The position numbers and the translations under genes are program-made. A DNA stretch of 64,000 bases. Source: Betaproteobacteria bacterium RIFCSPLOWO2_12_FULL_68_20. GTDB lineage: Bacteria; Pseudomonadota; Gammaproteobacteria; Burkholderiales; SG8-39. The stretch covers positions 5,753-69,752 of the forward strand of contig MERQ01000025.1 in NCBI GenBank assembly GCA_001770655.1. The letters run 5' to 3'. Positions 5,686 through 64,000 of this stretch are shown here, in pieces; within the stretch, counting starts at the first letter, position 1; the number at the start of each line of letters is the position of its first letter. Below the pieces are notes generated by a model. It did not search any database, was not told where the DNA came from, and saw nothing but the letters and a program-made list of their open reading frames with translations.

Positions 5686-5687
5686 GG

Positions 5688-28582: not shown

Positions 28583-29239
28583 GTCCAGACCTTTGGCGAC
28601 CTGGTGAACTTCCATCCCCACGTGCATGTGCTCGCCGCCGAGGGCGTTTTTCGCGCCGATGGCACGTTCGTCCCCCTGCCGCCGATCCCCGAGGCGCTGC
28701 TCATGCTGCGCGCGCCGCTCTCCCTTGCCAAGATGAGCTACGACGCGGCCAGCGGCACGGTGATCTACCGCTCCAAGATGCACCTGGGACTGAAGAGGAA
28801 CTTCCAGGTCATGGCGGGCGCCGAGTGGCTGGAGCTGCTGTGCAAACACATTCCCGATCGCTACGAGCAGTTGGTCCGTTACTGCGGCTGGTACTCGAGC
28901 CGCAGCCGCGGGGCGCGGGCGGCGAAGACTGCCGTTTCGACCAACGCCGCCAGCACCGTCACCGAACCCTTGAGCGAGTTCGCGCAGCGCGCCAAGGCGG
29001 CCTGGGCGCGGCTGATCCGCAAGGTCTATGAAGCCGACCCGCTCGAATGTCCCAAGTGCAAAGGTCCGATGCGCGTCATCGCGCTGATCGAGGATCCCGG
29101 CGTGGTGCGAGCGATTCTCGTGCATCTGGGCCGCTGGGAGCCGAAGGCGCTAGAGCGCGCCCCGCCCGTGCCTCCGGGCGCCTGGCCCGCGCACGCGGGT
29201 CTGCCGCTCACGTATCACCCCCTCCCCGATATCGCTTGA
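28583..29239 (+). mobile_element. 5'-truncated IS91-family (HUH/Y2) transposase
   Basis: VQTFGDLVNFHPHVHVLAAEG (HUH motif), LVRYCGWYSSRSRG (Y2 motif), CPKCKGPMRVIALIED. The N-terminal ~180 aa and recognisable element ends are missing. Confidence 0.7.
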
Positions 29240-31503: not shown

Positions 31504-32916
31504 TCAGCTCAGCCTGACGTACTCGTACTCGAGCGGCAGGTTGTTGATGCCGCGCTCGGGCGGAGCGATCCAGCTGGCCATCTTGCCGGGCTCGGCCACC
31601 CGCCGCATCAGCGACTTGACGTAGTCGCGGTCCTGCTGCGAGGGGATCCACTCGTGCAGGCGCCGCGAGTATTCCTCTTCCGGCAGGAGCTTGCCCAGCG
31701 GGTCCACCGGCTGCCCGGCCCAGGCGCCGATGGCGCGCCGGAAGCGGGCGGAGGGAAGGCTCAGGCGGAACTCGTGCCCGGCGCGCTCGATCGTGCGGTT
31801 CCAGCGCTTCAGGCCGATCTCGCAGTCCTTCAGGTAGGACTCGCGCATCACCTCGTTCAGCGCGTTCAGCACCGGCACCTCCTGCTCGCCCTCAGGCGTT
31901 GCCACCTTCATCGAAGCCCCGCGCAGCACGTGATCTTCATACTGGTCTTCGTCCGGGCGTCCTTTCAGGCCGTTGGCGAAATTTGCCGCCGAGTTCGACG
32001 AGATCTCCGAGCCGAACAGGTCGAGCGAGCTGGAGCACCAGAAATTCAGGTACTTCTGCAGCGTCGCCAGGTCCACGGCGCCGTGCTCGCGCAGACGCGC
32101 CGGATCCCCGGTGCCGAGCTCCTTCATCGCCTCGAGCGTGCGCTTCACCACGCGGCCGATGCCGGTCTCGCCGACGAACATGTGGTGCGCCTCTTCGGTA
32201 AGCATGAACCGGCAGGTTCGCGACAGCGGATCGAACGCCGATTCCGCGAGGCTCTTCAGCTGGTACTTGCCGTCGCGGTCGGTGAAGTAGGTGAAGCAGT
32301 AGAACGACAGCCAGTCCAGAATCGGCTCGTTGAAGGTGGTGAGGATCCGCGGCTTGTCGGCGTCGCCCGAATGGCGCGCGAGCAGCTCCTCGGCCTCCTC
32401 GCGCCCGTCGCGCCCGAAATAGGCGTGCAGCAGGTACACCATCGCCCAAAGATGCCTGCCTTCCTCGACATTGACCTGAAACAGGTTCCTGAGATCGTAA
32501 AGGGAAGGGCAGCTGTGCCCGAGCAGCCGCTGCTGCTCGACCGAGGCGGGCTCGGTGTCGCCCTGGGTGACGAGCAGGCGCCTGAGCGTCGAGCGGTACT
32601 CGCCCGGCACCTGCTGCCAGGCCGGCTCGCCCATGCGGTCGCCGAAGCCGATCTTCCTGTCCGGCACCGCGTCCGCGAGGAAGATCCCCCAGCGGTAGTC
32701 GGGCATGTGCACCGCGCCGTAGGTCGCCCAGCCCTGCGCGTCCACCGACACGGCGGTGCGCAGGTAAACGTCGGCGCGCTCGAAGTCGGTCGGCCCCATC
32801 TCGTGCCACCACTGCAGGAAATGCGGCTGCCAGTGCTCTAGCGCGCGCTGCAGCGTCCTGTCGTTCGCCAGGTTGACGTTATTGGGGATTTTCTCGGAAT
32901 AATTGACCGCGCTCAT
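31504..32916 (-). CDS. boxB: Benzoyl-CoA 2,3-epoxidase (oxygenase) component B
   Basis: 470 aa MSAVNYSEKIPNNVNLANDRTLQRALEHWQP...; diiron motifs VEEGRHLW and TEEAHHMF. ATGA overlap with boxC. Confidence 0.9.
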   Translation of the reverse strand: MSAVNYSEKIPNNVNLANDRTLQRALEHWQPHFLQWWHEMGPTDFERADVYLRTAVSVDAQGWATYGAVHMPDYRWGIFLADAVPDRKIGFGDRMGEPAWQQVPGEYRSTLRRLLVTQGDTEPASVEQQRLLGHSCPSLYDLRNLFQVNVEEGRHLWAMVYLLHAYFGRDGREEAEELLARHSGDADKPRILTTFNEPILDWLSFYCFTYFTDRDGKYQLKSLAESAFDPLSRTCRFMLTEEAHHMFVGETGIGRVVKRTLEAMKELGTGDPARLREHGAVDLATLQKYLNFWCSSSLDLFGSEISSNSAANFANGLKGRPDEDQYEDHVLRGASMKVATPEGEQEVPVLNALNEVMRESYLKDCEIGLKRWNRTIERAGHEFRLSLPSARFRRAIGAWAGQPVDPLGKLLPEEEYSRRLHEWIPSQQDRDYVKSLMRRVAEPGKMASWIAPPERGINNLPLEYEYVRLS

Positions 32917-34568
32917 ACGCGCTCCCAGTTGAATTTCGCCTTCGCGCCGGTGCCGTACACCTTGAGCGCGCCGTGCTCGCCGGTGGCGTTCGGCCGGTTG
33001 AAGATCCAGTTCTGCCACGCCGAGAGCCGTCCAAAGACGCGCGTGTGCATGCTCTCGCGTCCGGCGAAGCGCAGCGACGCCTCCATACCGGTGAGGGCGT
33101 CGGGCGACAGGCTCGCGCGCTCCTCGATGGCGATGCGCACCTCGTCTTCCCAGTCGATGTCGTCGGGGGTCGAGGTCACCAGGCCGAGCTCGCGTGCTTC
33201 GCGCGTCTCGAGCGGCCGGCCGATCGCCTGGTGCGCCGCCTCGACCGGCGCGGTCTCGGCGCAGAAATGCGTCTCGATGCGCGAGAGCCCGCTCACCATC
33301 GGGTAGGCGCCGAAGTTCATCGGAGTCAGGGCGATGCGCGGCCCGTTCTCGGCATCGAGCATGAAGCTGCGGTCGGCCGCGAAGAGCAGCTCGGCGAGCG
33401 TGCCGGCGAAGCACGATCCGGCGTCGGCGATCGCGAACATCGAGCGCGAGGCGACGTCGAAGCGCGCGAGCGTGCGGCGCAGGTAGCCGACGGTCTCGCG
33501 TACGAACCAGTGGCCGCGGTGCTTGTCGAGCGCGGCGTCCATCGCGAGCATGGCGTCCATGTGGCCGCGCGTCTTCAGCACCCACAGCCCGATGTCGAGA
33601 TGGTTGTGGCGCAGCGTGAGGATCGCATCGTCGAGCTGGCGCGCCAGCGCGAGCGGCCACCATGCCGAGCCGCGCTCGAGCATCGCTTCCGGCGTATCGG
33701 GCTGGGCGCCGGTCGGCGCGAACACCGTGATCTCGGCTTTGCGGCCCGCCGCGTCGATCTTCACGTCCACCGTCGGGTAGTGGTAGCCGTCCTCGCGGGC
33801 AGTGCGCACGAAGGGCTTCAGCTCCACGCCCTGGCCTCCCGGACGGTCGGAGAGCGCGGCGAGCTCGAGCGCGCGGTTCTTGACGAATTGCGCGAACTGC
33901 TGCGGCTTCGCGACGTGGTCCACCAGCTTCCACTGCTTCGCGCGGTCGGCGCGCACGCCCTCGGCAGTGGTGCTGAACACGTCGGCGAGATCGCGCCGGA
34001 TCTTCCTCTTGTCCACCAGCCGGGTCAGCCCCCCGGTGCCGGGCAGCACGCCGAGCAGCGGCACTTCCGGCAGGCTCACGGTGGAGGAGCGGTCGTCGAT
34101 CATCGCGATCTCGTCGCAGGCGAGCGCCAGCTCGTAGCCGCCGCCCGCCGTGGCGCCGTTCAGCGCCGCCAGGAATTTGAGGCCCGAATGCGCGCTCGAG
34201 TCCTCGATGCCGTTGCGCGTCTCGTTGGTGAACTTGCAGAAGTTCACCTTGCCGGGGTGCGAGGTATGGCCGAGCATGTAGATGTTCGCGCCGGAGCAGA
34301 ACATGCGGCTCTTGCCACTGGTGATCACTGCCGCCTTCACCTCGGGGTGCTCGAAGCGGATGCGGTTGAGCGCGTCGGCGAGCTCGATGTCCACGCCCAG
34401 GTCGTAGCTGTTGAGCTTCAGCTTGTAGCCCGGCTCCAGCGCCTTGTCCTCCGCCACGTCCAGCGTGAGCATGGCGATCGGGCCGTCGAAGCCGAGCCTC
34501 CAGTGGTGATAGCGGTCCGGCTGCGTGTCGAAGGACACCTGTGCCGGCCGCTTGGACAGATCGTTCAT
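32913..34568 (-). CDS. boxC: 2,3-epoxybenzoyl-CoA dihydrolase (benzoyl-CoA-dihydrodiol lyase)
   Basis: 551 aa MNDLSKRPAQVSFDTQPDRYHHWRL...; crotonase fold FCSGANIYMLG, GGGYELALACD. ATGA overlaps on both sides. Confidence 0.9.
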   Translation of the reverse strand: MNDLSKRPAQVSFDTQPDRYHHWRLGFDGPIAMLTLDVAEDKALEPGYKLKLNSYDLGVDIELADALNRIRFEHPEVKAAVITSGKSRMFCSGANIYMLGHTSHPGKVNFCKFTNETRNGIEDSSAHSGLKFLAALNGATAGGGYELALACDEIAMIDDRSSTVSLPEVPLLGVLPGTGGLTRLVDKRKIRRDLADVFSTTAEGVRADRAKQWKLVDHVAKPQQFAQFVKNRALELAALSDRPGGQGVELKPFVRTAREDGYHYPTVDVKIDAAGRKAEITVFAPTGAQPDTPEAMLERGSAWWPLALARQLDDAILTLRHNHLDIGLWVLKTRGHMDAMLAMDAALDKHRGHWFVRETVGYLRRTLARFDVASRSMFAIADAGSCFAGTLAELLFAADRSFMLDAENGPRIALTPMNFGAYPMVSGLSRIETHFCAETAPVEAAHQAIGRPLETREARELGLVTSTPDDIDWEDEVRIAIEERASLSPDALTGMEASLRFAGRESMHTRVFGRLSAWQNWIFNRPNATGEHGALKVYGTGAKAKFNWERV

Positions 34569-35338
34569 GCCTCCTCCTTGGCGAGCAGCGCGCGCAGCGC
34601 GGCGAGGCCCTGCTTCGCCGAGCGACCCGAGGTGTCCAGCGTGACGTCGGCGCGCGCGTACAGCCGCTCGCGGTCGGCGAGCAGCTGGCGGATCTCGTCG
34701 AGGGCCGCCGAGCGGCCCTTGAACGGCCGCATGTCGCCCTGCGCGATGACGCGCGCCATGTGCTCCTCGGGCGAGGCCTTCAGCCACACGCAATACGAGC
34801 GATCGAGCAGCAGCTGGTAGGTTCCCGGGTCGGTGACGAGCGACCCGCCGGCCGCGATCACCGCGCGCTCGTGCTGCTTCAGCACGCGCTCGAGCGCGCG
34901 GCGCTCGAAGCGGCGGAACGCCTCCTGGCCGTACATGGAGAACACCTCGCCCAGGCTGGCGCCGGCATCGTTTTCCACCTCGCGGTCGAGCTCGATGAAC
35001 GGAACGTCCAGCGCGCGCGCCAGCTTCGCGCCGAGCGTGGACTTGCCGGCGCCGCGCAGGCCGAGGAGCGCAATGCGGCTGCGGCGCGGCGCCGCGTCGT
35101 GCTCGCGCACCAGCGCCTCGACCGGGACCTCCATCGCGCGCGCCACCTTGCGCAGCAGCAGCACCGAGATGTTGCCTTCGCCGGCCTCGAGCTGGGCGAG
35201 GTAGCGCTCCGACACTCCCGAGGCGGCGGCGAGCACCTTGCGCGTGGTGCCGCGCTCGGCGCGCCAAGCGCGCACGCGCGCGCCGAGCCGCGCGAGATAC
35301 GCTGCCTCCTGCTGCACGTGGGAGAGGGGGGCGTTCAC
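34565..35338 (-). CDS. boxR: BoxR/BzdR-type regulator (XRE HTH + shikimate-kinase-like domain)
   Basis: 257 aa, GTG start. HTH SGVSERYLAQLEAGEGNISVLLLRKVARAM, then P-loop LLGLRGAGKSTLG. Confidence 0.8.
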   Translation of the reverse strand: MNAPLSHVQQEAAYLARLGARVRAWRAERGTTRKVLAAASGVSERYLAQLEAGEGNISVLLLRKVARAMEVPVEALVREHDAAPRRSRIALLGLRGAGKSTLGAKLARALDVPFIELDREVENDAGASLGEVFSMYGQEAFRRFERRALERVLKQHERAVIAAGGSLVTDPGTYQLLLDRSYCVWLKASPEEHMARVIAQGDMRPFKGRSAALDEIRQLLADRERLYARADVTLDTSGRSAKQGLAALRALLAKEEA

Positions 35339-35392: not shown

Positions 35393-35866
35393 ATGAAGCT
35401 CGCGATCCTCGTCGGCACCATGACCGGCACGGCGCAGTTGTGCGCGCAGGAGATCGAGCTCGCGCTCGACGGCGACGGCGTCCAGGTGGAGACGCTGATG
35501 ATGGACAAGCTTCACCCCTCGGTGTTCGCCCGCCGCGAGCGTGTCTACCTGATCTGCACCTCGACCTACGGCCAGGGCGACGTGCCCGACAACGCCAAGG
35601 CGTTCTACCAGGCGCTGTGCAGCGAGCGCCCGGGCCTCGGCGGCGTGCGCTACGGCGTGTTCGGCCTGGGGGACCGCACCTACGTCGAGACCTTCAATTT
35701 CGGCGGCAAGCGCTTCGACGACATCCTGTCGGAGCTCGGCGCCGAGCGCATCGGCGAGCGCTACACCCACGATGCCTCGAGCGGCACGCTGCCCGAGGAG
35801 CTGGCGGTGGAGTGGGCGCGCAAGTGGCTCGAGAAGGTCCGCGAGCGTCTGTCTCAGCCGGCCTGA
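35393..35866 (+). CDS. Flavodoxin (MioC-like)
   Basis: 157 aa. MKLAILVGTMTGTAQ FMN-phosphate loop, TSTYGQGDVPDN, GVFGLGDRTY. Confidence 0.8.
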   Translation: MKLAILVGTMTGTAQLCAQEIELALDGDGVQVETLMMDKLHPSVFARRERVYLICTSTYGQGDVPDNAKAFYQALCSERPGLGGVRYGVFGLGDRTYVETFNFGGKRFDDILSELGAERIGERYTHDASSGTLPEELAVEWARKWLEKVRERLSQPA

Positions 35867-38767: not shown

Positions 38768-40288
38768 ATGGACATCCCGCGCGACTACAACGCCGCCGAG
38801 GACCTGATCGGCCGCAACCTCGAGGCGGGCCGCGGCGGCAAGACCGCGTTCGTCGACGACGCCGGCAGTTACACGTACGCGCAGCTCGCCGAGCGCGTCG
38901 ACCGCGCGGCGAACGCGATCCGCGCGCTCGGCATCGAGCGCGAGCAAAGGATCGCGATCGCGATGCTCGACGGTTGCGACTGGCCGGCGGTGTTTCTCGG
39001 CGCGATCAAGGCGGGAATCGTTCCCGTGGCGATGAACACGCTGCTCACCCCCTCGGATTACCAGTATCAGCTGCGCGACAGCCGCGCGAGGGCGCTGTTC
39101 GTCTCCGAGCCGCTGCTCAAGTCCTTCGAGCCGATCCGCAACAAGTGCCCTGACTTGAAGCATGTCGTGGTGGCCGGCAAGCAGCTCTCCGACATGCTCG
39201 CCGCGGCGCCCGCCAAGGCCGCGGCGGCGCAGACGACGAGCGACGACGTGTGCTTCTGGCTCTACTCGTCGGGATCCACCGGCGCGCCGAAGGGCACCGT
39301 GCACCTGCACTCGCACCTGATCCTCACCGCCGACACGTACGCGAAGCAGGTCCTCGGCATCCGCGAGTCGGACGTGGTGTTCTCGGCGGCGAAGCTGTTT
39401 TTCGCCTACGGCCTGGGCAACGCGCTCACCTTCCCGATGTCGGTGGGCGCGACCGCGGTGCTGATGGCCGAGCGCCCGACCCCGGATTCGGTGTTCAAGC
39501 GCCTGGTCGAGAAGAAGCCGACCATCTTCTACGGCGTGCCGACGCTCTACGCGGCGCTGCTTGCGAGTCCCGCGTTTCCGAAGCGCGAGCAGCTCGCGCT
39601 GCGCACCTGCGTGTCGGCGGGCGAGGCGCTCCCGCCCGACATCGCGCGGCGCTTCAAGGAAAGGACCGGGCTGGAGATCCTCGACGGCATCGGCTCGACC
39701 GAGATGCTGCACATCTTCCTCTCCAACCGGCCGGGCGAGGTGCGCTTCGGCACGACGGGCAAGTCGGTGCCCGGCTATCAGTTGCGCCTGGTGGACGATC
39801 AGGGCAACGTCGTCACCAAGCCGGGAGAGCTCGGCGAGCTGCAGATCGGCGGGCCGACCGCCGCGATCATGTACTGGAACCAGAGAGAGAAAACCAAGAA
39901 CACGTTCCAGGGGCCGTGGACGCGCAGCGGCGACAAGTACAGCGTGGACGAGCAGGGCTACTACGTCTACGGCGGCCGCGCCGACGACATGCTGAAGGTG
40001 TCCGGAATCTGGGTCTCGCCGGTTGAGGTCGAAGCCGCGCTCATCTCGCACGAGGCGGTACTTGAAGCCGCAGTGGTCGGCGCCGAAGACCGGGACAAGC
40101 TCGTCAAGCCGAAGGCCTACGTGGTTCTCAAGCCCGGCCAGACGGCGAGCGAGTCCTTGACGACGGCGCTGCAGCAGCACGTCAAGGACAAGCTCGCGCC
40201 CTACAAGTACCCGCGCTGGATCGAGTTTCGCGACGAATTACCGAAGACGGCGACTGGAAAAATCCAGCGCTTCAAGCTGCGCAGTTGA
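38768..40288 (+). CDS. Aryl-CoA ligase (benzoate/4-hydroxybenzoate-CoA ligase family)
   Basis: 506 aa. AMP-binding LYSSGSTGAPKGTVH, benzoate-CoA-ligase-like N-terminus, C-terminal PKTATGKIQRFKLR (A10 lysine codon at 40259-40261). Confidence 0.85.
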   Translation: MDIPRDYNAAEDLIGRNLEAGRGGKTAFVDDAGSYTYAQLAERVDRAANAIRALGIEREQRIAIAMLDGCDWPAVFLGAIKAGIVPVAMNTLLTPSDYQYQLRDSRARALFVSEPLLKSFEPIRNKCPDLKHVVVAGKQLSDMLAAAPAKAAAAQTTSDDVCFWLYSSGSTGAPKGTVHLHSHLILTADTYAKQVLGIRESDVVFSAAKLFFAYGLGNALTFPMSVGATAVLMAERPTPDSVFKRLVEKKPTIFYGVPTLYAALLASPAFPKREQLALRTCVSAGEALPPDIARRFKERTGLEILDGIGSTEMLHIFLSNRPGEVRFGTTGKSVPGYQLRLVDDQGNVVTKPGELGELQIGGPTAAIMYWNQREKTKNTFQGPWTRSGDKYSVDEQGYYVYGGRADDMLKVSGIWVSPVEVEAALISHEAVLEAAVVGAEDRDKLVKPKAYVVLKPGQTASESLTTALQQHVKDKLAPYKYPRWIEFRDELPKTATGKIQRFKLRS

Positions 40289-43340: not shown

Positions 43341-43739
43341 ATGGCGACACCGACCGAGCCCCGCGGCTCCGAGCTGAAGCTCGACCCGTCGGCGCTGTAC
43401 CTCGAGGAGGTCTTCACCGACCGGAGGATCGGCACCATCCGGCGCCTCACCCCGATGAAAAAGGACGGCGCGCGCGACGCCGCGCGCGCCGTGCTCTACG
43501 TGGGCGAGACGCAGGTGCTCACGCCCGCGGGCGCGCTGCCGATCGCGTTCGAAATCGGCGCCGGCTCGCTCGAGGAGGCGGCCGAGAAGTTCGGCCAGCT
43601 CGCGAAGGAGGCGATCGAGCGCACGGTGAAGGAGTTGCAGGACCTGCGCCGCCAGGCCGCCTCCTCGATCGTCATCCCGCAGGGCGGCATTCCGCCCGTA
43701 GGCGGGATGCCGGGCGGCGGCAAGATCCAGATTCCTTGA
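43341..43739 (+). CDS. Hypothetical protein, no family recognised
   Basis: 132 aa, GC3-rich and codon-consistent. No signal peptide. Gly/Pro-rich tail IVIPQGGIPPVGGMPGGGKIQIP. Stop overlaps the sirtuin start (TTGA). Confidence 0.6.
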   Translation: MATPTEPRGSELKLDPSALYLEEVFTDRRIGTIRRLTPMKKDGARDAARAVLYVGETQVLTPAGALPIAFEIGAGSLEEAAEKFGQLAKEAIERTVKELQDLRRQAASSIVIPQGGIPPVGGMPGGGKIQIP

Positions 43740-44476
43740 TTGCCGAAGTCCGTTCCTGGATCGACGCGGCGTCGCGCATCGTCGCGCTCACCGGCGCGGG
43801 CATCTCCACGGACTCCGGGATTCCCGATTTCCGCGGCCCGCGAGGGGTGTGGACTAAGGACCCGCTGGCCGAGAAGCTCTCGAACATCCATCACTATCTC
43901 GCCGATGCGGAGGTGAGGAAAGCGTCGTGGCAGAACCGGCTGCACTCATCGGCATGGCAGGCGAAGCCGAATCCCGGCCACTTCGCTTTGGTCGATCTGG
44001 AGCGGCGCGGCAAGCTCCATGCGCTCATCACGCAGAACATCGACGAGCTGCACCAGCTCGCCGGCAACTCGCCTGAGCGCGTGGTCGAGGTGCACGGCAC
44101 CATGCGCAAGTTCATGTGCTGGGGCTGCGGCACGAGAGGGCCGATGCAGTCCGTGCTCGAGCGCGTGCGCGCGGGGGAGGAAGACCCGCGCTGCGAGGAC
44201 TGCGGCGGCATCCTGAAGAGCGACACCATCTCGTTCGGCCAGAACCTGGTGCCCGAGGTGATCGACCGCGCGATGCGGGTCGCGGGCGAGGCGGACCTGT
44301 TCCTTTCCGTGGGAACGAGCCTTCAGGTCTATCCCATCGCGGGAGCCGTCGACATCGCGCGGCAGGCGGGAGCGAAGATCGTGATCCTGAACGCGCAGCC
44401 GACGCCCTTCGACGGGGTCGCCGACGCGGTGCTGCCCGGCTCGATCAGCGAAGTATTGCCGGCGATCTGCGGCTAG
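43736..44476 (+). CDS. cobB: NAD-dependent protein deacylase (Sir2/CobB family)
   Basis: 246 aa, TTG start. GAGISTDSGIPDFRG, ITQNIDELH, VEVHG, Zn ribbon CWGCG...CEDCGG. Confidence 0.85.
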   Translation: MIAEVRSWIDAASRIVALTGAGISTDSGIPDFRGPRGVWTKDPLAEKLSNIHHYLADAEVRKASWQNRLHSSAWQAKPNPGHFALVDLERRGKLHALITQNIDELHQLAGNSPERVVEVHGTMRKFMCWGCGTRGPMQSVLERVRAGEEDPRCEDCGGILKSDTISFGQNLVPEVIDRAMRVAGEADLFLSVGTSLQVYPIAGAVDIARQAGAKIVILNAQPTPFDGVADAVLPGSISEVLPAICG

Positions 44477-55724: not shown

Positions 55725-56384
55725 CTATCTGGGCTGCTGCACGAGCCGCAGATAGGGTTTCTTGGCGTTCCAGCCCGCCGGAAACTGCTTCTTGGCGTCC
55801 TCGTCGGATACCGACGCCAGGATGATCACGTCCTCGCCCTGCTTCCAGTTCACCGGCGTCGCCACCTTGTGCCTCGCGGTGAGCTGCATCGAATCGAGCA
55901 CCCGCAGCACCTCGTCGAAGTTGCGCCCGGTGCTCATCGGGTAGGTGAGCATCAGCTTGATCTTCCTGTCCGGGCCGATGACGAACACCGAGCGCACGGT
56001 GGCGTTGTCGGCCGCGGTGCGGCCCTTCGCCTCGCCGCTCGCGTTCGGGTGGATCATGTCGTAGAGCTTCGCCACCTTCAGGTCGGAATCCCCGATGATC
56101 GGGTAGTTGGGCGCGGCGCCCTGGGTCTCCTCGATGTCCCTCGCCCAGCGCTCGTGGTCGTCGGTCGAATCGATGCTCAGTCCGATGACCTTGCAGCTGC
56201 GCCTGTCGAACTCGGGCTTCAGGCGCGCCATGTAGCCGAGCTCCGTGGTGCACACCGGCGTGAAGTCCTTCGGGTGCGAGAACAGGATCGTCCACTTGTC
56301 GCCGATCCATTTGTGAAATTCGATCGGTCCTTCGGTCGTCTGCGCCGTGAAGTCCGGCGCTTCGTCTCCTATGCGCAGTGCCAT
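55725..56384 (-). CDS. 1-Cys peroxiredoxin (Prx6 type)
   Basis: 219 aa MALRIGDEAPDFTAQTTEG...FSHPKDFTPVCTTE. ATG after GGAAAGGAGCAGGTC. Tail of the spurious 456-aa track ORF. Confidence 0.9.
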   Translation of the reverse strand: MALRIGDEAPDFTAQTTEGPIEFHKWIGDKWTILFSHPKDFTPVCTTELGYMARLKPEFDRRSCKVIGLSIDSTDDHERWARDIEETQGAAPNYPIIGDSDLKVAKLYDMIHPNASGEAKGRTAADNATVRSVFVIGPDRKIKLMLTYPMSTGRNFDEVLRVLDSMQLTARHKVATPVNWKQGEDVIILASVSDEDAKKQFPAGWNAKKPYLRLVQQPR

Positions 56385-56461
56385 GACCTGCTCCTTTCCT
56401 GGGATGGGGTGCGGATCATAACGCCGGGCAGACCATTCCCGCGACCGGGAATTGGAGCCGC

Positions 56462-57976
56462 TCAGGCGGGCTTTCCGAGTAATTTGCTTATGACCGGCCG
56501 CGAGCCCTCGAGCGCGACCCGTTGCATGTAGAACGCGAGCCCGCGCGGGCCCCCCAGCTCCTCGCCCCCGCCGGCGCGCCCGGGCCCGCCGTGCACCAGT
56601 TGCGGCAGCACCGTGCCCGGCCCCGGCGAAAGCTCGATCTTCGGATGGCCGAGGAAGATCCGCCCGTGGTGCGGCGCGATGCACAGGAACATCTCTTCGA
56701 TCCAGGCCGCGTCGTCGGAATAGAGCGAGCACACCAGGCCGCCGTTTCCTCGCGCCACTATCCCTCCCGGCTCCTGCGCGTAGGGCAGCAGCGAGGCCAC
56801 CGGGCCGAACACCTCGTGCTTGTGCACCGCATCGCCCGGCTCCTCGACGAGCACGGGCGACATGAAAAATCCCTTGGGCGACACAGGCGCCGTGCTGCCG
56901 AAGGCGAGCTTGCCGCCCAGCCGCTGCACGCCTTCGCGCGCATCGGCGAGCTGCGAGGCGGTGGCGAGCGGCCCCATGCGGGTTTCCTCGATCGCGGGAT
57001 TGCCGACCTTGACGCCGGCGAGCAGGCCCGAGATGTCGTCGCGCACTGTCGCGGCGTGCTGCCGCGGCACGAGCACGCGGCGGATCGCGGTGCATTTCTG
57101 TCCCGCCTTCTGAGTCATGTCGCGCACCACGTCTTTCAGAAACGTCTCGTACATGTCGCTCGCCGGCTCGACGTCCGGGCCGAGCACCGCCGCGTTCAGG
57201 CTGTCGGCCTCGACGTTTACGCGAACGGAATGCTCGCTGATGTTTGGAAGCTTCCGAATGGACTTTCCCACATCGCCCGAGCCGGTGAACGCGAGCACGT
57301 CCTGCGCGCCGAGCATCGAGACCAGGTCGCGCGGAGAGCCGACGAGAAGCGACAGCGCGCCCTCGGGCAGCAGCTTGTTCTGGACGATCAGCTCGGTCAC
57401 CCGGTGCGCGACCAGCGCCGAGCTGGTCGCCGGCTTGGCGAGCACGGGCATGCCGGCGAGCAGCGCCACCGCGGCCTTCTCGGCGAAACCCCAGGCGGGG
57501 AAGTTGAAGGCGTTGACGTGCACGGCCACGCCCTGGCGCGGCACCATCACGTGCTGGCCATGGAAGCGCACCGAGCGCCCGAGCTGGATGCCTTCGCCGT
57601 CCATGAGGAAACGCGCGGCGCCGAGCGCAGCGCCGGTCTCGGCGTATGCGAGGAGCGTCTGGATCGCGCCGTCGACGTCGAACTTCGCGTCAGAGCGGGT
57701 GTTGCCGCCGTTGGCGATCCCGAGCTCGAGCAGCTCGTCGCGGTGCGCCTGCATCGCGTCGGCCATGCTCTTCAGGAGCGCCGCGCGCCCTGCAAAGCCG
57801 AGCGCGCGCAGGGCCGGGCCGCCCGCCCGCCGCGCGTGGGCGAGCGCCGCGGCGAGGTCGATGCCCTCGCTGCTCGCGCGGGCGAGGGGCTCCTCGGTGG
57901 CGGGGTTGAACAGGGTCTGCGGCGACCCTGTGCCGGCGACCCAGCGGCCTTCGACGTAGCTGCGCAGTTCCTGCAT
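56462..57976 (-). CDS. PaaZ-N/BoxD-like aldehyde dehydrogenase (3,4-dehydroadipyl-CoA semialdehyde dehydrogenase candidate)
   Basis: 504 aa. [31 protein letters not shown] and [17 protein letters not shown] motifs of the PaaZ/BoxD ALDH clade. No MaoC domain. Confidence 0.75.
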
Positions 57977-58050
57977 GGCGAGGCTCCCTTTTGCGTTTCG
58001 GCAGGAAGGATACTAAAGTAGCGACCGAGATTGTTTGGGGTCCAAACAAA

Positions 58051-58551
58051 ATGAGCCAGGGCGTCATGGTGCGGCGCAACGTCCACATCGACCTGCGCGT
58101 GAACGGCGAGACGCAGGAGGCTTCGTTCGCGCCCTACAAGACGCTGCTCGAGGTGCTGCGCGAGGACCTCGGCCTCACCGGCACCAAGCACGGCTGCGAG
58201 CTGGGCGAATGCGGCGCCTGCGCGGTGCTGGTGGACGGCGAGCCGCAGCTCTCGTGCCTGGTGCTCGCGGTGGAATGCGAAGGGCGCTCGATCGAGACGG
58301 TTGAAGGGATGGCGAAAGGCGCCGAGCTTCACCCCTTGCAGGCCGCGTTTGCCGACCTCGGCGCGGCCCAGTGCGGCTACTGCACTCCGGGGATCCTGAT
58401 GACCGCGAAGGCGCTACTTGAGCGCGAGCCCAGCCCCACGCGCGACCGGATCCGGGAGGCGATCTCGGGCAACCTGTGCCGCTGCACCGGGTACCAGCAG
58501 ATTTACGAGGCCGTCGAAGAGGCTGCGCGGCGTATGAAGGAGTCCGCATGA
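58051..58551 (+). CDS. hcrC: [2Fe-2S] small subunit of a xanthine-dehydrogenase-family enzyme, HcrC-like
   Basis: GCELGECGACAV and CGYCTPG...CRCTGY cluster motifs. Gene order small-large-FAD as in hcrCAB. Start is 58051 or 58066. Confidence 0.75.
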   Translation: MSQGVMVRRNVHIDLRVNGETQEASFAPYKTLLEVLREDLGLTGTKHGCELGECGACAVLVDGEPQLSCLVLAVECEGRSIETVEGMAKGAELHPLQAAFADLGAAQCGYCTPGILMTAKALLEREPSPTRDRIREAISGNLCRCTGYQQIYEAVEEAARRMKESA

Positions 58552-60977
58552 AGGTCATCGGGAAACCGCGCCGACGGGTGGACGGCTGGGCGAAGGTCAC
58601 CGGCCGAACCCGCTTCGCCGACGACATCGTGCTGCCGCGCATGCTGCACATGAAGCTCCTGCGCTCGCCGCTGCCGCACGCGGAGATCGAGGCGATCGAC
58701 GTGTCGCGCGCGGAGAAGCTCGCCGGAGTCCAGCTCGTCCTCACGGGGAAGGACTTTCCCGTCACGTTCGGCATCATGCCGGTATCGCAGGACGAGTATC
58801 CGCTCGCGAGCGACCGCGTGCGCTTCGTCGGCGACCCTGTCGCCGCGGTGATCGCGCGCGACGAGCAGACCTGCACCGAGGCGCTGGACCTGATCGAGGT
58901 GAAGTACCGGCCGCTCAAGACGATCGCGACGCCCGAGGAGGCGCTCGCCACGACCGAGCCGCGCATCCACGAGTACGGCCCGCACGGGAACATCCACCGC
59001 CTCCAGGCCCACGAGTTCGGCGACGTCGAGGAGGCGCTCGGCAGCTCGGACTACGTGTTCGAGGACGTCTTCTTCTACGAGGGCAACACCCACCTCGCGA
59101 TCGAGCAGCAAGCCGCGGTCGCCGCGCTCGAGGACGCGGGCGGCCTCGTCCTGTACTCGAGCACCCAGAACCCGCATTACCTGCACCGGGAGCTCGCGCG
59201 CGTGCTGCAGATGCCCGCCTCGCGGATCCGGGTCGTTGCGACGCCGAACGGCGGCGGCTTCGGCGGCAGGTGCGACCCCGCCAACCACGAGATGGTGGTG
59301 GCGAAGGCGGCGCTCGCGCTCGGCCGGCCGGTGAAGATCTGCCTCTCGCGCGAGGAGGTCTTCTACGTGCACCGCGGGCGGCATCCGGTGCTGATGAAGT
59401 TCCGCACCGGCGTCACGAAGGACGGGCGCCTCACCGGGATCCACCTGCAGACCCTGCTCGACGGCGGCGCGTACGGCTCGCACGGTGCGGCGAGCACTTT
59501 CTACACGGGTGTGCTTACGCCCACCACCTACGAGCTGCCGCGCTTCAAGTTCGAGGCCTGCCGCACGTTCACCAACAAGCCGCCCTGCGGTCCCAAGCGC
59601 GGACACGGCACTCCGCAGCCGCGCTTCGGCCAGGAGGTGCAGCTCGACAAGATCGCCGAGAAACTCGGGCTCGATCCGGCCGAGATGCGCCTGCGCATCG
59701 CGGTCAAGCCGAACTCGCTCACGGCCAACTGGCTCAGGATAGGCTCCGCCGGCCTTGCCGAGTGCATCCGTCAGGTGGTCGAGCGTTCGGGCTGGAAGGA
59801 GAAGTTCCGCAAGCTGCCCGAGGGCCGCGGCGTCGGGCTCGCCTGCAGCGCGTACATGTGCGGCGCGGGATTGCCGATCTACTGGAACAAGATGCCGCAC
59901 TCGGGCGTGCAGCTGCTCGCCGACCGCAGCGGCCAGGTCACGGCGCTTTGCGGCGCGACCGAGATCGGGCAGGGATCGGACGACGTGCTCGCAGCGATGG
60001 TGGCCGAGGTCCTCGGCATCGGCGCCGAGGACGTGCGCGTGCTCACCGGCGACACCGGCCTGACTCCCGTGGACCTCGGCTCCTACTCCAGCCGCGTCAC
60101 GGTGATGATGGGCAACGCCGCGATCCAGGCCGCCGAGGCGCTGAAGGCAAGGATCGCAGAAGCAGCCTCCGAGCAGTTCCAGGTCGCGCCGAACCGGCTC
60201 GAGTTCGCAAACGGCCGCGTGTTCCTCGCTGCCGATGCGTCGAAAGGGATGGCTTTTCGCGAGGCGATCGAGCTCGCCGAGGCGAAGTTCGGCACGCTGG
60301 GCTCGGTCGGCTCGTACCGGCCGCCGGACCCGCCCGGCCGGTACAAGGGGGCGGGCGCCGGCCCGTCGCCCGCGTACTCCTACACGGCCTGCGTGGTCGA
60401 GGTCGAGGTGGACAGGGCGACCGGCTGGATCGCAGTGCCGAAGATCTGGATCGCGCACGACATCGGCCGCGTCATCAACCCGGTGCTCGCGCGCGGCCAG
60501 GTGGTCGGCAGCGTCTACATGGGGCTTGCCGAGGCGCTGATGGAGGAGCAGGTGTTCCGGCGCCTCCCGCCGAAGCTTTCCAACGCCCTCGTTCACAAGT
60601 TCCCGTCGCTGCTCGAGTACAAGAGCCCGACCTCGCTCGACATGCCCGAGGTGGAGACAGTCTTCGTCGAGGATCCCGATCCGAATTGCCCGTTCGGCGC
60701 GAAGGAAGTGGGGCAGGGGCCGCTGCTGCCCGTGCCGCCGGCGCTCGCGAACGCGATCTACGACGCGGTGGGAGTAAGGATCGACGAGCTGCCGATCACG
60801 CCCGACAAGGTGCTGCGCGCGCTGGAAAAGAAGGCGAAGGGCGAAGAACCGCGTGTCGGGCCCGAGCATTTCCCCGCTGTGCCCTATCCCGAGCCCGTCG
60901 TCGTGCCCCCGCCCTGGGAAGGCGGCGACGGCAATGCGGTGAAGGGCGCCGGGCCGAAGGTGAAGGTGCCGGCATGA
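58548..60977 (+). CDS. hcrA: Molybdopterin large subunit, 4-hydroxybenzoyl-CoA reductase alpha (HcrA)-like
   Basis: 809 aa MKVIGKPRRRVDGWAKVTGRTRFADDI..., GGGFGG, GQGSDDVLA. ATGA overlaps with both neighbours. Confidence 0.8.
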   Translation: MKVIGKPRRRVDGWAKVTGRTRFADDIVLPRMLHMKLLRSPLPHAEIEAIDVSRAEKLAGVQLVLTGKDFPVTFGIMPVSQDEYPLASDRVRFVGDPVAAVIARDEQTCTEALDLIEVKYRPLKTIATPEEALATTEPRIHEYGPHGNIHRLQAHEFGDVEEALGSSDYVFEDVFFYEGNTHLAIEQQAAVAALEDAGGLVLYSSTQNPHYLHRELARVLQMPASRIRVVATPNGGGFGGRCDPANHEMVVAKAALALGRPVKICLSREEVFYVHRGRHPVLMKFRTGVTKDGRLTGIHLQTLLDGGAYGSHGAASTFYTGVLTPTTYELPRFKFEACRTFTNKPPCGPKRGHGTPQPRFGQEVQLDKIAEKLGLDPAEMRLRIAVKPNSLTANWLRIGSAGLAECIRQVVERSGWKEKFRKLPEGRGVGLACSAYMCGAGLPIYWNKMPHSGVQLLADRSGQVTALCGATEIGQGSDDVLAAMVAEVLGIGAEDVRVLTGDTGLTPVDLGSYSSRVTVMMGNAAIQAAEALKARIAEAASEQFQVAPNRLEFANGRVFLAADASKGMAFREAIELAEAKFGTLGSVGSYRPPDPPGRYKGAGAGPSPAYSYTACVVEVEVDRATGWIAVPKIWIAHDIGRVINPVLARGQVVGSVYMGLAEALMEEQVFRRLPPKLSNALVHKFPSLLEYKSPTSLDMPEVETVFVEDPDPNCPFGAKEVGQGPLLPVPPALANAIYDAVGVRIDELPITPDKVLRALEKKAKGEEPRVGPEHFPAVPYPEPVVVPPPWEGGDGNAVKGAGPKVKVPA

Positions 60978-61993
60978 TGCGGCTGCCGTGGTTCGAGTTC
61001 CGGGCGCCTTCGAGCGTCGCGGAAGCGGCGCGCATTCTCGCCGCGGAAGGACCGGACGCGATGCCGATCGCCGGCGGCACGGACCTGCTGCCGAACATGA
61101 AGCGCCGGCACCAGACGCCGCGCACGCTGGTATCGCTCCGACGCATCGAGAGCCTGAAGAAGGTATCGAATGGTGCTGGATTGACGCTCGGTGCCGGGCT
61201 GACGCTCACCGAGGTCATCCACGAGCCGAAAGCGCAGCCGTACGGCGCCTTGCGCCAGGCGGCTGCCCAGGTGGCCACCGTGCACCTGAGGAACATGGGC
61301 ACGCTGGGAGGCAATCTCTGCCTGGACACGCGCTGCACCTACTACAACCAGAACTACGAATGGCGCAAGGCGATCGATTTCTGCCTGAAGAAGGACGGCG
61401 GGATCTGCTGGGTGGCGACCGCCAGCAAGCGCTGCGTGGCGATGTCCTCCACCGACTGCGCGCCGGCGCTGATCGCGATCGGGGCGAAGGCGAAGTTGGT
61501 CTCGGCGACCGATGAGAGGGAACTCGCGCTCGAGAGTCTCTACAACAATGACGGGATCGAGTACCTGAAGCGCAGGCCCGACGAGATTCTCACCGAGATC
61601 CGGCTACCGCCGGCTGCGGGGTGGAGGAGCACCTACTGGAAGCTGCGCCGGCGCGGCGCGTTCGATTTCCCCGTGCTCGGCGTCGCCGCCGCGGCGAGAT
61701 TCGCAAAGGACGGCACGGTCGAGGAGGCGCGCATCGCGCTCGGCGCAGTCGCCTCGCGGCCGTTCCTGGTGCCTAAGGCGGCGGAAGCTCTTGTCGGGAA
61801 GAAGCTGACTGACGACGTGATCGCCGAAGCCGCGACGCTTGCCGCCTCGCGTGCCAAGCCGATGGACAACGCCGACCTCGACTTGTACTGGAGGAAGCAG
61901 GTCGCTGCGGATTTCGTCGGCTATGCGCTGCGCGAGCTGCGCGGCGACGACATGCGCGGAACGCGCCTGCGGATCGCGAGACAGATCCTCTAG
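60974..61993 (+). CDS. hcrB: FAD-binding subunit with extra Cys-rich loop, 4-hydroxybenzoyl-CoA reductase beta (HcrB)-like
   Basis: 339 aa. AGGTDLLP FAD motif. Insertion CTYYNQNYEWRKAIDFCLKKDGGICWVATASKRC (C121-x15-C137-x7-C145-x8-C154) as expected for the HcrB [4Fe-4S] loop. Confidence 0.8.
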   Translation: MMRLPWFEFRAPSSVAEAARILAAEGPDAMPIAGGTDLLPNMKRRHQTPRTLVSLRRIESLKKVSNGAGLTLGAGLTLTEVIHEPKAQPYGALRQAAAQVATVHLRNMGTLGGNLCLDTRCTYYNQNYEWRKAIDFCLKKDGGICWVATASKRCVAMSSTDCAPALIAIGAKAKLVSATDERELALESLYNNDGIEYLKRRPDEILTEIRLPPAAGWRSTYWKLRRRGAFDFPVLGVAAAARFAKDGTVEEARIALGAVASRPFLVPKAAEALVGKKLTDDVIAEAATLAASRAKPMDNADLDLYWRKQVAADFVGYALRELRGDDMRGTRLRIARQIL

Positions 61994-62031
61994 TCCGGTA
62001 CCGGCGCAACTCGCGGGAGTAAACTTCCGCC

Positions 62032-63003
62032 ATGCGCGAGGCAGGCCGTGCTGCGCGGGTGTTGATGCGCCAGACGCTCGACGGAAACCGTCGTGCGCTG
62101 GCGCAACTGATCAGCCTGGTCGAGTCGAACCCGTCGAGCGCGGCCGAACTGACGGCCGAGCTGCACGCGCGCGGCGGACGCGCCGCGATCGTCGGCGTGA
62201 CCGGTGCGCCGGGGACCGGGAAAAGCACCTTGGTCAACGAGCTGTGCAAATCGTTCCGGCGCGACGGTTGTCGGGTGGGCGTGATCGCCGTGGACCCCAG
62301 CTCGCCGTTCAGCGGAGGTGCGCTCCTGGGCGACCGCATACGCATGCGCGACCTGGCCGGCGACGACGGCGTGTTCATCCGCTCGATGGCGACGCGCGGC
62401 AACCTCGGCGGCCTCGCACGCGCCACCGCCGACGCGGTGCGCGTCCTGGATGCCGCCGGGTTCGAAATGGTGGTGATCGAGACGGTCGGAGTGGGCCAGG
62501 GAGAGTTGGAGATCGCCCGCCGCGCCGATACGGTTCTGGTGGTGGAGGCGCCCGGCCTGGGTGACGAGGTGCAGGCCATGAAGGCGGGCATCCTCGAAAT
62601 CGCGGACATCCTGGTGGTCAACAAGGCCGACCGGGAAGGGGCGGACGACACGGTCCGTGCCCTGCGGGCGATGGTGAATTTGGGCTCGCCTCTGGCCGGC
62701 GATCGGACCGACGCCTGGCGAGCGCCGGTCCTGAAGACGGTGGCGGTGAAAGGCACGGGCGTGGCCGACGTGGCAGAGTCGATCGCGCGACACCGCGGCT
62801 ACCTGGAGCGCAGCGGGACAGGCACCACGCGCCGGCGCCTGCGCGCAGCCGACGAGCTGGAAACGATCTTGCGCGACCTGCTGCTCGAGCGCGGGATGCA
62901 GCGGATCAGCCGTGTCGAGTTGGACACCCTGGTGGAGCGGGTCGCCGCCCGCGAGATCGATCCCTACGCCGCGGCGTGCCGGCTGCTCGGGGCGCCTATC
63001 TGA
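62032..63003 (+). CDS. meaB: Methylmalonyl-CoA-mutase-associated G-protein chaperone MeaB/ArgK
   Basis: 323 aa. GVTGAPGTGKST P-loop, IAVDPSSPFSGGALLGDRIRM, ETVGVGQ, VVNKAD. Confidence 0.85.
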   Translation: MREAGRAARVLMRQTLDGNRRALAQLISLVESNPSSAAELTAELHARGGRAAIVGVTGAPGTGKSTLVNELCKSFRRDGCRVGVIAVDPSSPFSGGALLGDRIRMRDLAGDDGVFIRSMATRGNLGGLARATADAVRVLDAAGFEMVVIETVGVGQGELEIARRADTVLVVEAPGLGDEVQAMKAGILEIADILVVNKADREGADDTVRALRAMVNLGSPLAGDRTDAWRAPVLKTVAVKGTGVADVAESIARHRGYLERSGTGTTRRRLRAADELETILRDLLLERGMQRISRVELDTLVERVAAREIDPYAAACRLLGAPI

Positions 63004-63451
63004 CGCGCCCCGGCTGATCCCGCGCGGGCTGCTCGCCGTCGGCAGCCTTCGCGCGCCGCGCGTTCGCCGCCAGGTACTCGATGATGGCGTCGCCAGAGGT
63101 TCCGGGCGGAAAGACCTTGGCCACGCCGTTGGCCGCGAGATCGGCGATCTGCTTCGGAGGGATGTTTCCGCCGCAGACGACCGGAACGTCCGTCAGCCCG
63201 CGCTTCTTGACGAGGTCCAGGAGTTCTTCGATCAGGGAGAAATTGGACGCGTGGCAGCTGATGCCGATCACGTCCACATCCTCGTCGATCGCGGCGTTGA
63301 CGATCATGGCCGGAGTCTGGTTGATCCCCAGATAGACCACCTCGAAGCCGGCATCGCGCAACAGGGACGACACCACCTTCGCGCCCGTGGTGTGGCTGTC
63401 GAGGCCGATCATCGAGACGAGCACCTTGATTCCCATGCCCTTGCCTGCCAT
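62996..63451 (-). CDS. Cobalamin-binding small subunit of an acyl-CoA mutase
   Basis: 151 aa. GLDSHTTGAKVV (DxHxxG B12 motif), GISCHAS, VVCGGNIP. Confidence 0.8.
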   Translation of the reverse strand: MAGKGMGIKVLVSMIGLDSHTTGAKVVSSLLRDAGFEVVYLGINQTPAMIVNAAIDEDVDVIGISCHASNFSLIEELLDLVKKRGLTDVPVVCGGNIPPKQIADLAANGVAKVFPPGTSGDAIIEYLAANARRAKAADGEQPARDQPGRVR

Positions 63452-63482
63452 TGCGTTCTCCCGCGCGCTGGCGTTTCCGCCG

Positions 63483-64000
63483 TCAGCCCAGGCCGTAAGG
63501 GCATTCGATCGTGCCGAAGGGGTCGTAGTGCAGGCCGCGCGCCATGCGGATGACTCCGACGATCTCGCCGGCCGTGGCGTAGACCTTGACCGCGTCGATG
63601 ATCGCCGGCATCAGGTTGAAGCGGTCGCCCTTCCTCGCGTCGGCATGCAGCCGTTGCAGGCTCGCCTTGATCGGCGCCAGGTCGCGGTTTCTCTTCCATT
63701 GCGCCATGCGCCTGGCGATGGCCTCGGAATCGCCCGCGCCGCTCTCCTGGACCGGAATTTCAAACATCTCCTCCTCCGGGGGCACGGCCAGGTGATTGAC
63801 TCCGACGATCAGCCGTTCCCCGTTGCGCACTTCCCGGAATTTGATGCTGGACTCTTCCTCCATCATGGCCTCGATGCGGTCCTTTTCGATCGCGGCGACG
63901 AGCCCGCCCAGCGCGTCGATCTCCTCCAGGATGCGGTAGGCTGCCTCTTCCACCTCGTTGGTGAGGCGCTCGACGAAGAACGAGCCGGCGAGAGGATCGA
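63483..64000 (-). CDS. Acyl-CoA mutase large (substrate-binding) subunit, C-terminal part (gene continues past the right edge)
   Basis: Frame open to the window end. DPLAGSFFVERLTNEVEEAAYRILEEIDALGG... is typical of the methylmalonyl-CoA mutase family. Confidence 0.8.
   Translation of the reverse strand, partial: DPLAGSFFVERLTNEVEEAAYRILEEIDALGGLVAAIEKDRIEAMMEEESSIKFREVRNGERLIVGVNHLAVPPEEEMFEIPVQESGAGDSEAIARRMAQWKRNRDLAPIKASLQRLHADARKGDRFNLMPAIIDAVKVYATAGEIVGVIRMARGLHYDPFGTIECPYGLG

Follow-up and report, generated by a model that had tools for sequence, protein, structure and literature searches.

4-Hydroxybenzoyl-CoA reductase (hereafter 4-HBCR), the three-subunit molybdenum enzyme encoded by hcrCAB in Thauera aromatica and by hbaBCD in Rhodopseudomonas palustris, is taken to mark the anaerobic breakdown of aromatics. 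Together with the urolithin C dehydroxylase Ucdh, which strips a phenolic hydroxyl para to an electron-withdrawing carbonyl (PMC12771579, PMC11760930), it makes up the whole set of characterised reductive dehydroxylases in the xanthine oxidase (XO) family (PMC12771579). The literature that we searched showed no link between Hcr and the O2-dependent box pathway; the Dechloromonas and SAR324 papers list the genes and no more. Here we describe an hcr-like operon in a 64,000-nucleotide stretch (hereafter the window, G+C 68%) of contig MERQ01000025.1 from the Rifle aquifer metagenome-assembled genome (MAG) Betaproteobacteria bacterium RIFCSPLOWO2_12_FULL_68_20, a window that also holds boxB, boxC, boxR and an aldehyde dehydrogenase (ALDH) gene of BoxD type. 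New here are an Hcr-related subfamily, its changed catalytic residue and its setting among genes of an aerobic pathway. Our preferred but tentative reading, to which we give somewhat less than an even chance, is that the operon, which represents a distinct 'Gln-type' HcrCAB-like subfamily, encodes a peripheral reductive dehydroxylase that would feed benzoyl-CoA to BoxBC.

Genes in the window were called from a codon-usage-based gene map together with the translations of the open reading frames (ORFs). The three genes of the operon (58051-61993) stand in the order hcrC-hcrA-hcrB with ATGA overlaps at both the hcrC/hcrA and hcrA/hcrB junctions, as an earlier note on this DNA, made from the letters alone, had described; this small-large-medium order of subunits is, we take it, that of hcrCAB and hbaBCD. 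The translation of hcrC, for which the ATG at 58066 is a possible alternative start, shows the Cys motifs C-x4-C-x2-C-xn-C and C-x2-C...C-x-C and matches XO-family Fe-S subunits over its full length. The large subunit, for whose homologues Pfam PF01315, PF02738 and PF20256 are recorded, keeps the cofactor motifs TQ, GGGFG, RGHG, GQG and YSSRVT; from XO-family models, structures and motifs, the binding domains of that family for the Mo cofactor, two [2Fe-2S] clusters and FAD are all present. The operon is divergent from the ALDH gene, and the BoxD type that the same note gave this gene also holds: the product scores 649.6 bits against the BoxD equivalog NF008868 (cut-off 444, full-length match) and 504 against the PaaZ-N model, below that model's cut-off. 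A Pro-rich tail of about 45 residues (…PEHFPAVPYPEPVVVPPPWEGGDG…, 60834-60977) extends the large subunit past the end of Thauera HcrA; it appears to be conserved, judging by homologue lengths of 804-822 aa.

For the three genes in turn, NCBIfam's top models are those of the 4-HBCR gamma, alpha and beta subunits, and among solved structures 1RM6_A (578 bits) and 1RM6_B (183 bits) come nearest, with other XO-family enzymes far behind. A word-indexed search returned at least 8000 homologues, the top 120 of which are 77-100% identical and all carry names of Burkholderiales or Betaproteobacteria MAG proteins. For wider placement, an exhaustive search covered 1.84 billion cluster representatives, and a neighbour-joining (NJ) tree was built from 137 full-length representatives at 50% identity, with a bootstrap of 200 replicates on a 37-taxon subset. 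An 'Hcr-related' superclade of 25 representatives, in which Thauera HcrA is the sole characterised member, separates from XdhA-like sequences with 97% support. Within it the window clade joins cluster P0121 (100%) and Thauera HcrA joins cluster P0145 (100%).

The active site sets the window protein apart from Thauera HcrA. In all pairwise and multiple alignments the universal catalytic Glu position of the XO family, beneath the molybdenum, is occupied here by Gln723, aligned with Thauera E726, with PaoC E692 (numbering counted from the alignment) and with the VGE/IGE motifs of nicotinate dehydrogenase and CoxL. The motif GAKE[AV]GQG is found in 120 of 120 close homologues, whereas Glu is kept in all other Hcr-like subfamilies except P0125 and in 99 of 112 more distant representatives. 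A further difference is that Cys-Asp follows GGGFG here and Thr-Glu in Thauera. The Glu in question (bovine E1261, R. capsulatus E730) is the general base of hydroxylation, and Glu730 mutants of R. capsulatus xanthine dehydrogenase (XDH) are at least 10^7-fold slower (PMC9966888).

It could be objected that the operon encodes an ordinary oxidative molybdenum hydroxylase or aldehyde oxidoreductase acting on an aromatic, a heteroaromatic or an aldehyde, since XO-family enzymes are mostly oxidative, FAD subunits of the PaoB type also have a Cys loop (see below), and the deposited annotation of the large subunit is 'aldehyde oxidase' (OGA69496.1). As far as alignments can tell, the strictly conserved Gln argues against that annotation and against any ordinary hydroxylase, because it replaces the general-base Glu needed for hydroxylation (PMC9966888), and it does so in every member of the subfamily. 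The nearest characterised relative is moreover a reductase, and a dedicated BoxD aldehyde dehydrogenase is already there; we consider an oxidative role very unlikely. A Gln-type active site would be compatible with a dedicated reductase, and the loss of a carboxylate beside Mo could conceivably raise the Mo potentials and lessen the need for a very low-potential donor.

The FAD subunit carries an insertion that speaks to electron transfer in the preferred reading. Its Cys residues are 116, 121, 137, 145, 154 and 162, the codon of C121 being TGC at 61334-61336 and that of C154 ending at 61435, which places the loop C121-x15-C137-x7-C145-x8-C154 exactly where the earlier note had put it. The choice of which loop Cys residues act as cluster ligands is our assumption. 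The alignment of the loop with Thauera HcrB (1RM6_B) is free of gaps, C116/121/137/145/154 here corresponding to C117/122/138/146/155 there, so that the claimed identity of spacing stands; 76 of 76 related HcrB-like proteins show the full pattern C-x4-C-x15-C-x7-C-x8-C. In Thauera HcrB this insertion has been assigned to an extra 4Fe-4S cluster (PMC11760930). The FAD subunits of carbon monoxide dehydrogenase (CODH), quinoline oxidoreductase (QOR) and XDH are without it, and their alignments break at this point. Contrary to what had been supposed, the loop is not strictly unique to HcrB: a homologous one, aligned with gaps, occurs in PaoB (5G5G_B) and in the subunit of a Methylobacillus aldehyde oxidase (5Y6Q_B).

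Genomic context was compared across relatives. Scanning one genome per species gave at least 502 related stretches, of which the best 80 (74-87% identity) were taken as 22-kb hcr-anchored loci (L001-L080), all from MAGs of soil, groundwater and lakes; their genes were called and the products clustered, and part of the neighbour families was annotated. The core of these loci is hcrC-hcrA-hcrB, and its commonest catabolic neighbour is an orthologue of the window's ligase of the benzoate-CoA ligase family. In a recurrent order, boxB-boxC-boxR faces flavodoxin-ligase-(132-aa protein)-(flavin monooxygenase)-tetR-hcrCAB, at times continuing with a BoxD-type ALDH, a second ligase and a CobB sirtuin; such a box-linked order was seen in L001, L019, L024, L026, L028, L048, L077 and L080, and in L082 and L114 of the BoxB-anchored set described below. 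Where at least 8 kb of upstream flank was available, 13 of 42 loci have the ligase no more than 10 kb upstream of hcrA, and 9 of 42 have boxR with the flavodoxin. Loci of at least 15 kb contain the ligase, the flavodoxin, boxR/C/B or a BoxD-type ALDH in 15 of 43 cases, or 19 of 43 if the sirtuin and the 132-aa protein are also counted. In 8-9 related loci an orthologue of the BoxD-type ALDH is no more than 10 kb from hcrCAB, and the flavodoxin adjoins boxR in nine of the hcr-anchored loci.

The linkage of hcr to box and ligase genes is stronger in many relatives than in the window. The earlier note had assigned the operon to the same supercluster as boxRCB and the ligase; this is borne out as direct adjacency in many related MAGs and is loose in the window itself, where box and ligase genes are 16-25 kb from the operon, with P-type ATPase, TerC, Usp and LysR genes intervening. 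The window looks like a rearranged form of the relatives' neighbourhood, in which about 14 kb of unrelated genes split the ligase arm from the hcr/boxD pair.

Other recurrent neighbours in the hcr-anchored loci are a peroxiredoxin, a Cu/Zn superoxide dismutase (SOD), a TauD-family dioxygenase, TRAP transporters and aldo-keto reductases. The 1-Cys peroxiredoxin gene adjoins hcrC in about 11-12 related loci besides the window, and the Cu/Zn SOD gene lies beside the hcr-like operon in L004 (12048-12425) and in 2-3 other loci. A 371-aa flavin monooxygenase (family f8; L001:19728-20843 and 12 other loci, absent from the window) often stands just upstream of tetR-hcrCAB or beside the sirtuin; it matches only the N-terminal half of a bifunctional salicylyl-CoA 5-hydroxylase (NF006101, 347 bits) and may be an aryl-CoA hydroxylase. 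The CobB-type NAD-dependent protein deacylase, found in 17 related loci, travels with the ligase; in L011, L018 and L052 its gene immediately precedes hcrC. Lysine acetylation controls aryl-CoA ligases in R. palustris.

In the window, the box set of boxA, boxB, boxC, boxD, ligase and boxR is complete in all but boxA. To view the linkage from the other side, we assembled a reciprocal set of 80 BoxB-anchored metagenome-contig loci (L081-L160, 82-87% identity). Their invariant unit is the flavodoxin facing boxR-boxC-boxB: all loci that reach past boxR (about 40) have a MioC-type flavodoxin gene divergent from it. The window flavodoxin is likewise divergent from boxR and is a candidate redox partner for this box cluster without boxA. 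ORFs resembling BoxA were found in 2 of the 80 loci (L097 and L106), each encoding 406 aa with two CxxCxxCxxxC motifs and lying beside a second boxB paralogue (62% identical). Tandem boxB genes, with a paralogue 62% identical to the BoxB of the window between boxC and the orthologous boxB, occur in L083, L085, L089, L097, L102, L104 and L142. A DUF6306 protein of 123-148 aa is encoded directly downstream of boxB in the majority of related box clusters (L082:7880-8263 and about 50 other BoxB-anchored loci) and also at L001:1996-2376; in the window that gene is absent, and an ABC-F ATPase gene follows boxB.

By contrast with the flavodoxin, hcrCAB lies within 10 kb in only 2 of these 80 loci, many of which are short or have an extended ligase arm like that of the window, which would push hcr past the flank. 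The hcr genes are clearly accessory to the box cluster and not core. This bears on the idea that the hcr complex replaces BoxA and delivers electrons to BoxB, for example from formate or from the aldehyde product of BoxC, for which one could cite the lack of boxA in the window or beside orthologous boxB in relatives, and the placement of hcrCAB in the transcription direction of flavodoxin and ligase in several loci. The reciprocal scan speaks against it, the flavodoxin rather than hcr being the invariable partner of boxR-boxC-boxB, and Gln at the catalytic position disfavours an oxidising half-reaction; we rejected hcr as a BoxA substitute, which strikes us as hardly credible.

The regulatory signals likewise set the hcr operon apart from the box cluster. 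The perfect palindrome that abuts hcrC has a chance expectation of 0.02 matches in the window. The same AT-rich palindrome, TTGTTTGG-N3-CCAAACAA, is found 0-160 nt upstream of hcrC in about 34 of the 80 hcr-anchored loci and is confined to loci without an adjacent upstream tetR, the window included; a TetR-family gene stands directly upstream of hcr, in the same orientation, in 31 loci. The palindrome is probably the operator of the hcr operon, a prediction from position and distribution; it may instead form an RNA hairpin over the ribosome-binding site. We considered control of hcr by BoxR and rejected it, since TGCA-type operators occur only in the boxR-flavodoxin spacer, where the window has TGCA-containing inverted repeats. 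A dedicated operator or TetR, no BoxR sites and the 2 of 80 linkage to BoxB together fit a substrate-specific peripheral module that feeds a central pathway. Both half-sites of the palindrome carry symmetric changes in L023 and L047, and L044 has an extra copy in its boxR-flavodoxin spacer (position 1123). A scan of 56300-62200 for sigma-70 promoters and terminators gave no signal over background.

From these elements the following route can be proposed. The enzyme of the benzoate-CoA ligase family, whose structurally nearest match is the B. xenovorans benzoate-CoA ligase 2V7B (610 bits), would convert a benzoate with a para hydroxyl, in the simplest case 4-hydroxybenzoate, to its CoA ester. 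Electrons would enter the hcr-like enzyme at the [4Fe-4S] loop and run 'backwards' through FAD and the two [2Fe-2S] clusters to Mo, where the phenolic oxygen would be removed to give benzoyl-CoA. This would then be epoxidised by BoxB, hydrolysed by BoxC and oxidised by the BoxD-type dehydrogenase, with the hcr operon under its own regulator (the palindrome here, the adjacent TetR elsewhere) instead of BoxR. For the hcr-like enzyme we infer what it acts on, that it works in the reductive direction, what donates its electrons and that it serves at low oxygen. Neighbours that depend on O2 or belong to oxidative stress (the flavin aryl-CoA monooxygenase homologue, the peroxiredoxin, the Cu/Zn SOD and the TauD-family dioxygenase) support the box route. 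By our own reasoning, such a route would spend one O2 per ring, against two in the PobA/protocatechuate route, and would suit low-oxygen groundwater, which we take to be the meaning of 'LOWO2' in the name of the MAG.

Several results weigh against this reading. All three subunits fall below the 4-HBCR equivalog cut-offs (hcrC-like, 191.5 bits against 257.8 for TIGR03193; hcrA-like, 802.9 against 994.55 for TIGR03194; hcrB-like, 268.9 against 404.55 for TIGR03195), and BLAST identity to the Thauera proteins is 39% for alpha and 40% for beta. About 20 uncharacterised 50%-identity clusters are nearer to the window protein than the Thauera-type cluster P0145, which is 61% identical to Thauera HcrA and ranks only about 25th. 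In the NJ tree the window and Thauera clades are not sisters but are separated by many uncharacterised subfamilies. On these grounds of score, identity and tree position the window enzyme is, by sequence, a different branch of the HcrA-containing superclade and not an Hcr orthologue. The earlier identification as a 4-hydroxybenzoyl-CoA reductase therefore survives as an Hcr-like three-subunit enzyme with the extra Cys loop, and the check by large-subunit phylogeny that it called for places the protein inside the 97% superclade with Thauera HcrA but not beside it, as judged by NJ on 50%-identity representatives only. Thauera E726 is not conserved in the window subfamily, so that the chemistry may differ from that of Thauera Hcr. 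Nor is the Cys loop proof of reductive flow, because PaoB, from an oxidative enzyme, has a related loop. To these are added the closeness of the ligase to benzoate-specific ligases, the distance between the operon and the box and ligase genes in the window, the scarcity of hcrCAB in the BoxB-anchored set (L082 and L114) and the failure to find TGCA-type BoxR operators upstream of hcrC or the ALDH gene in the window. Finally, characterised 4-HBCR is oxygen-sensitive and requires reduced ferredoxin (PMC12771579).

A rival reading is the ordinary anaerobic route, in which the same reaction would take place in a facultative anaerobe, the benzoyl-CoA would go to a bcr/bzd/bam reductase encoded elsewhere and the proximity of box genes would be mere clustering of genes related to benzoyl-CoA. 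Cultivated Thauera, Aromatoleum and Magnetospirillum do have both box and bcr (PMC6449761, PMC10803450), the hcr operon has its own regulator instead of BoxR sites, and our scans covered the 64-kb window and the 22-kb loci only. Within that reach, family scans of the window ORFs found no Bcr- or Bam-like ORF, in agreement with the earlier note, and none like BoxA; no Bcr- or Bam-like family appeared among the recurrent neighbour families annotated in the 80 hcr-anchored loci. The commonest pathway neighbours are box genes, and others are the O2-dependent or oxidative-stress genes named above. We regard the anaerobic route as unlikely.

Another possibility is a reductive enzyme with a different substrate, such as 3,4-dihydroxy-, 4-amino- or methoxy-hydroxybenzoyl-CoA, or one that deoxygenates a by-product of the box pathway (a hydroxybenzoyl-CoA or 2,3-epoxybenzoyl-CoA) in a salvage or detoxifying role. 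The distinct subfamily and its altered active site (Gln723, and Cys-Asp after GGGFG) would suit this, as would the homologue of the monooxygenase half of salicylyl-CoA 5-hydroxylase just upstream in 13 loci and the second acyl-CoA ligases, TRAP transporters and amidohydrolase_2 genes nearby. Nothing direct favours any particular alternative, however; the neighbourhoods vary, and 4-hydroxybenzoyl-CoA is the sole known substrate for this branch. We think a different substrate improbable. Returning to the dehydroxylase that would supply BoxBC, a more specific form of it is that the large 'Gln-type' Hcr-like branch, in uncultured Burkholderiales from soils and aquifers, is an oxygen-compatible aroyl-CoA dehydroxylase which feeds phenolics of the 4-hydroxybenzoate type to a boxA-less, flavodoxin-dependent box pathway; this stronger statement we hold to be doubtful.

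What makes the operon worth following is that an abundant subfamily keeps the Hcr-type Fe-S loop, does without the catalytic Glu of its family and travels with O2-dependent box genes. Should the preferred reading be true, 'hcr' matches in metagenomes from soils and aquifers would call for another interpretation, and lignin-derived phenolic acids would have a low-oxygen CoA-dependent route, a hybrid that first reduces and then epoxidises and so brings the O2 cost per ring down from two to one. The natural Glu-to-Gln variant would also be a tool for learning how Mo enzymes run reductively.

The coordinates of the features discussed are collected in Table 1; the 132-aa protein listed there has no Pfam match. 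Elsewhere in the window, a Y2-transposase fragment lies at 28604-29239, about 2 kb past the ABC-F gene. The isc operon, msrA and ispA are much nearer to boxB in relatives than in the window, a sign that an insertion or rearrangement of about 13 kb has occurred near the window boxB. A minus-strand run at 2499-6686 encodes MetE-like (PRK06520), RraA/LigK-like aldolase, amidohydrolase_2 and RidA-like proteins and a weak match to class III extradiol dioxygenase; these genes may form a module for meta-cleavage of aromatics, all matches being far under equivalog cut-offs, and a protocatechuate 4,5-cleavage route for these genes (2.5-6.7 kb) was rejected as the matches are too weak. At the other end (62059-64000), a MeaB-type GTPase gene on the plus strand is convergent with a split acyl-CoA mutase on the minus strand, of which the B12-binding small subunit (62996-63451) and the C-terminal part of the large subunit (63483-63998) are seen. 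A link between these genes and the hcr operon was rejected, their adjacency not being conserved in the 80 related loci.

Table 1. Features of the hcr-like operon and of the box and ligase genes in the window (window coordinates).
Feature	Position	Strand	Basis or remark
boxB (benzoyl-CoA 2,3-epoxidase)	31504-32916	-	TIGR03225, 763.7 (cut-off 499.1); 3PER_A, 665 bits
boxC (2,3-epoxybenzoyl-CoA dihydrolase)	32913-34568	-	TIGR03222, 882.1 (cut-off 712.3)
boxR/bzdR-type regulator	34565-35338	-	NF006015, 349 (cut-off 204)
MioC-type flavodoxin	35393-35866	+	NF005989 best match, 116.8 bits (cut-off 160 missed)
Benzoate-CoA ligase family enzyme	38768-40288	+	TIGR02262, 820.8 (cut-off 375)
Conserved 132-aa hypothetical protein and CobB-type sirtuin	43341-44476	+	sirtuin gene at 43847-44476; sirtuin NF001753, 181 bits (cut-off 243 missed)
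1-Cys peroxiredoxin, recurrent divergent neighbour of hcrCAB	55725-56384	-	best NCBIfam matches are peroxiredoxin models, 193.5 bits (cut-off 211 missed)
ALDH, BoxD-type, 504 aa	56462-57976	-	NF008868 equivalog passed
Perfect palindrome, 8+3+8, TTGTTTGGGGTCCAAACAA	58031-58049		abuts hcrC start; unique in window
hcrC-like small subunit, 2x[2Fe-2S]	58051-58551	+	TIGR03193 best NCBIfam model
hcrA-like molybdopterin (MCD) large subunit, 809 aa	58548-60977	+	TIGR03194; 1RM6_A
Gln723 codon CAG	60714-60716	+	aligned at the XO-family catalytic Glu position
hcrB-like FAD subunit, 339 aa	60974-61993	+	TIGR03195; 1RM6_B
Cys-rich insertion, presumed [4Fe-4S] loop (C116, C121, C137, C145, C154)	61319-61435	+	alignment to 1RM6_B

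Among known systems, the closest to the window operon are HcrCAB of Thauera aromatica (PDB 1RM6/1SB3) and HbaBCD of Rhodopseudomonas palustris, which have the same gene order and cofactor motifs; Thauera HcrB furthermore has a Cys-rich insertion in the FAD subunit of identical spacing. The large subunit differs in having Gln where Thauera HcrA has Glu726, and in its Pro-rich C-terminal tail. The hosts here are uncultured Burkholderiales, and the genomic company consists of box genes, flavodoxin, peroxiredoxin and flavin monooxygenase, unlike that of Thauera hcr, which we take to be bcr and ferredoxin.

E. coli PaoABC (PDB 5G5G) is likewise an XO-family heterotrimer, and the Cys-rich loop has a homologous counterpart in its FAD subunit. 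It differs in being oxidative and periplasmic, in keeping Glu692 and in a loop that aligns only with gaps, and FAD-subunit similarity is 91 bits to PaoB against 183 for 1RM6_B. The urolithin C dehydroxylase of Enterocloster bolteae (Ucdh/UcdCFO) resembles the window enzyme in its proposed role, as the other reductive dehydroxylase of the XO family; it is without the 4Fe-4S loop, has the Glu in place (E741) and depends on NADH, and its substrate is a free lactone, not a CoA ester (PMC11760930).

With the box pathway of Azoarcus evansii and Burkholderia xenovorans the window shares boxB, boxC, boxR, the BoxD-type ALDH and the ligase, all past their NCBIfam cut-offs, as well as TGCA-type operators in the divergent promoter of boxR. 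It differs from that pathway in having no boxA, in the flavodoxin divergent from boxR, and in a boxD that is displaced by some 21 kb and forms a pair with the hcr-like operon; relatives of the window carry hcrCAB as an insertion within the divergon's ligase arm.

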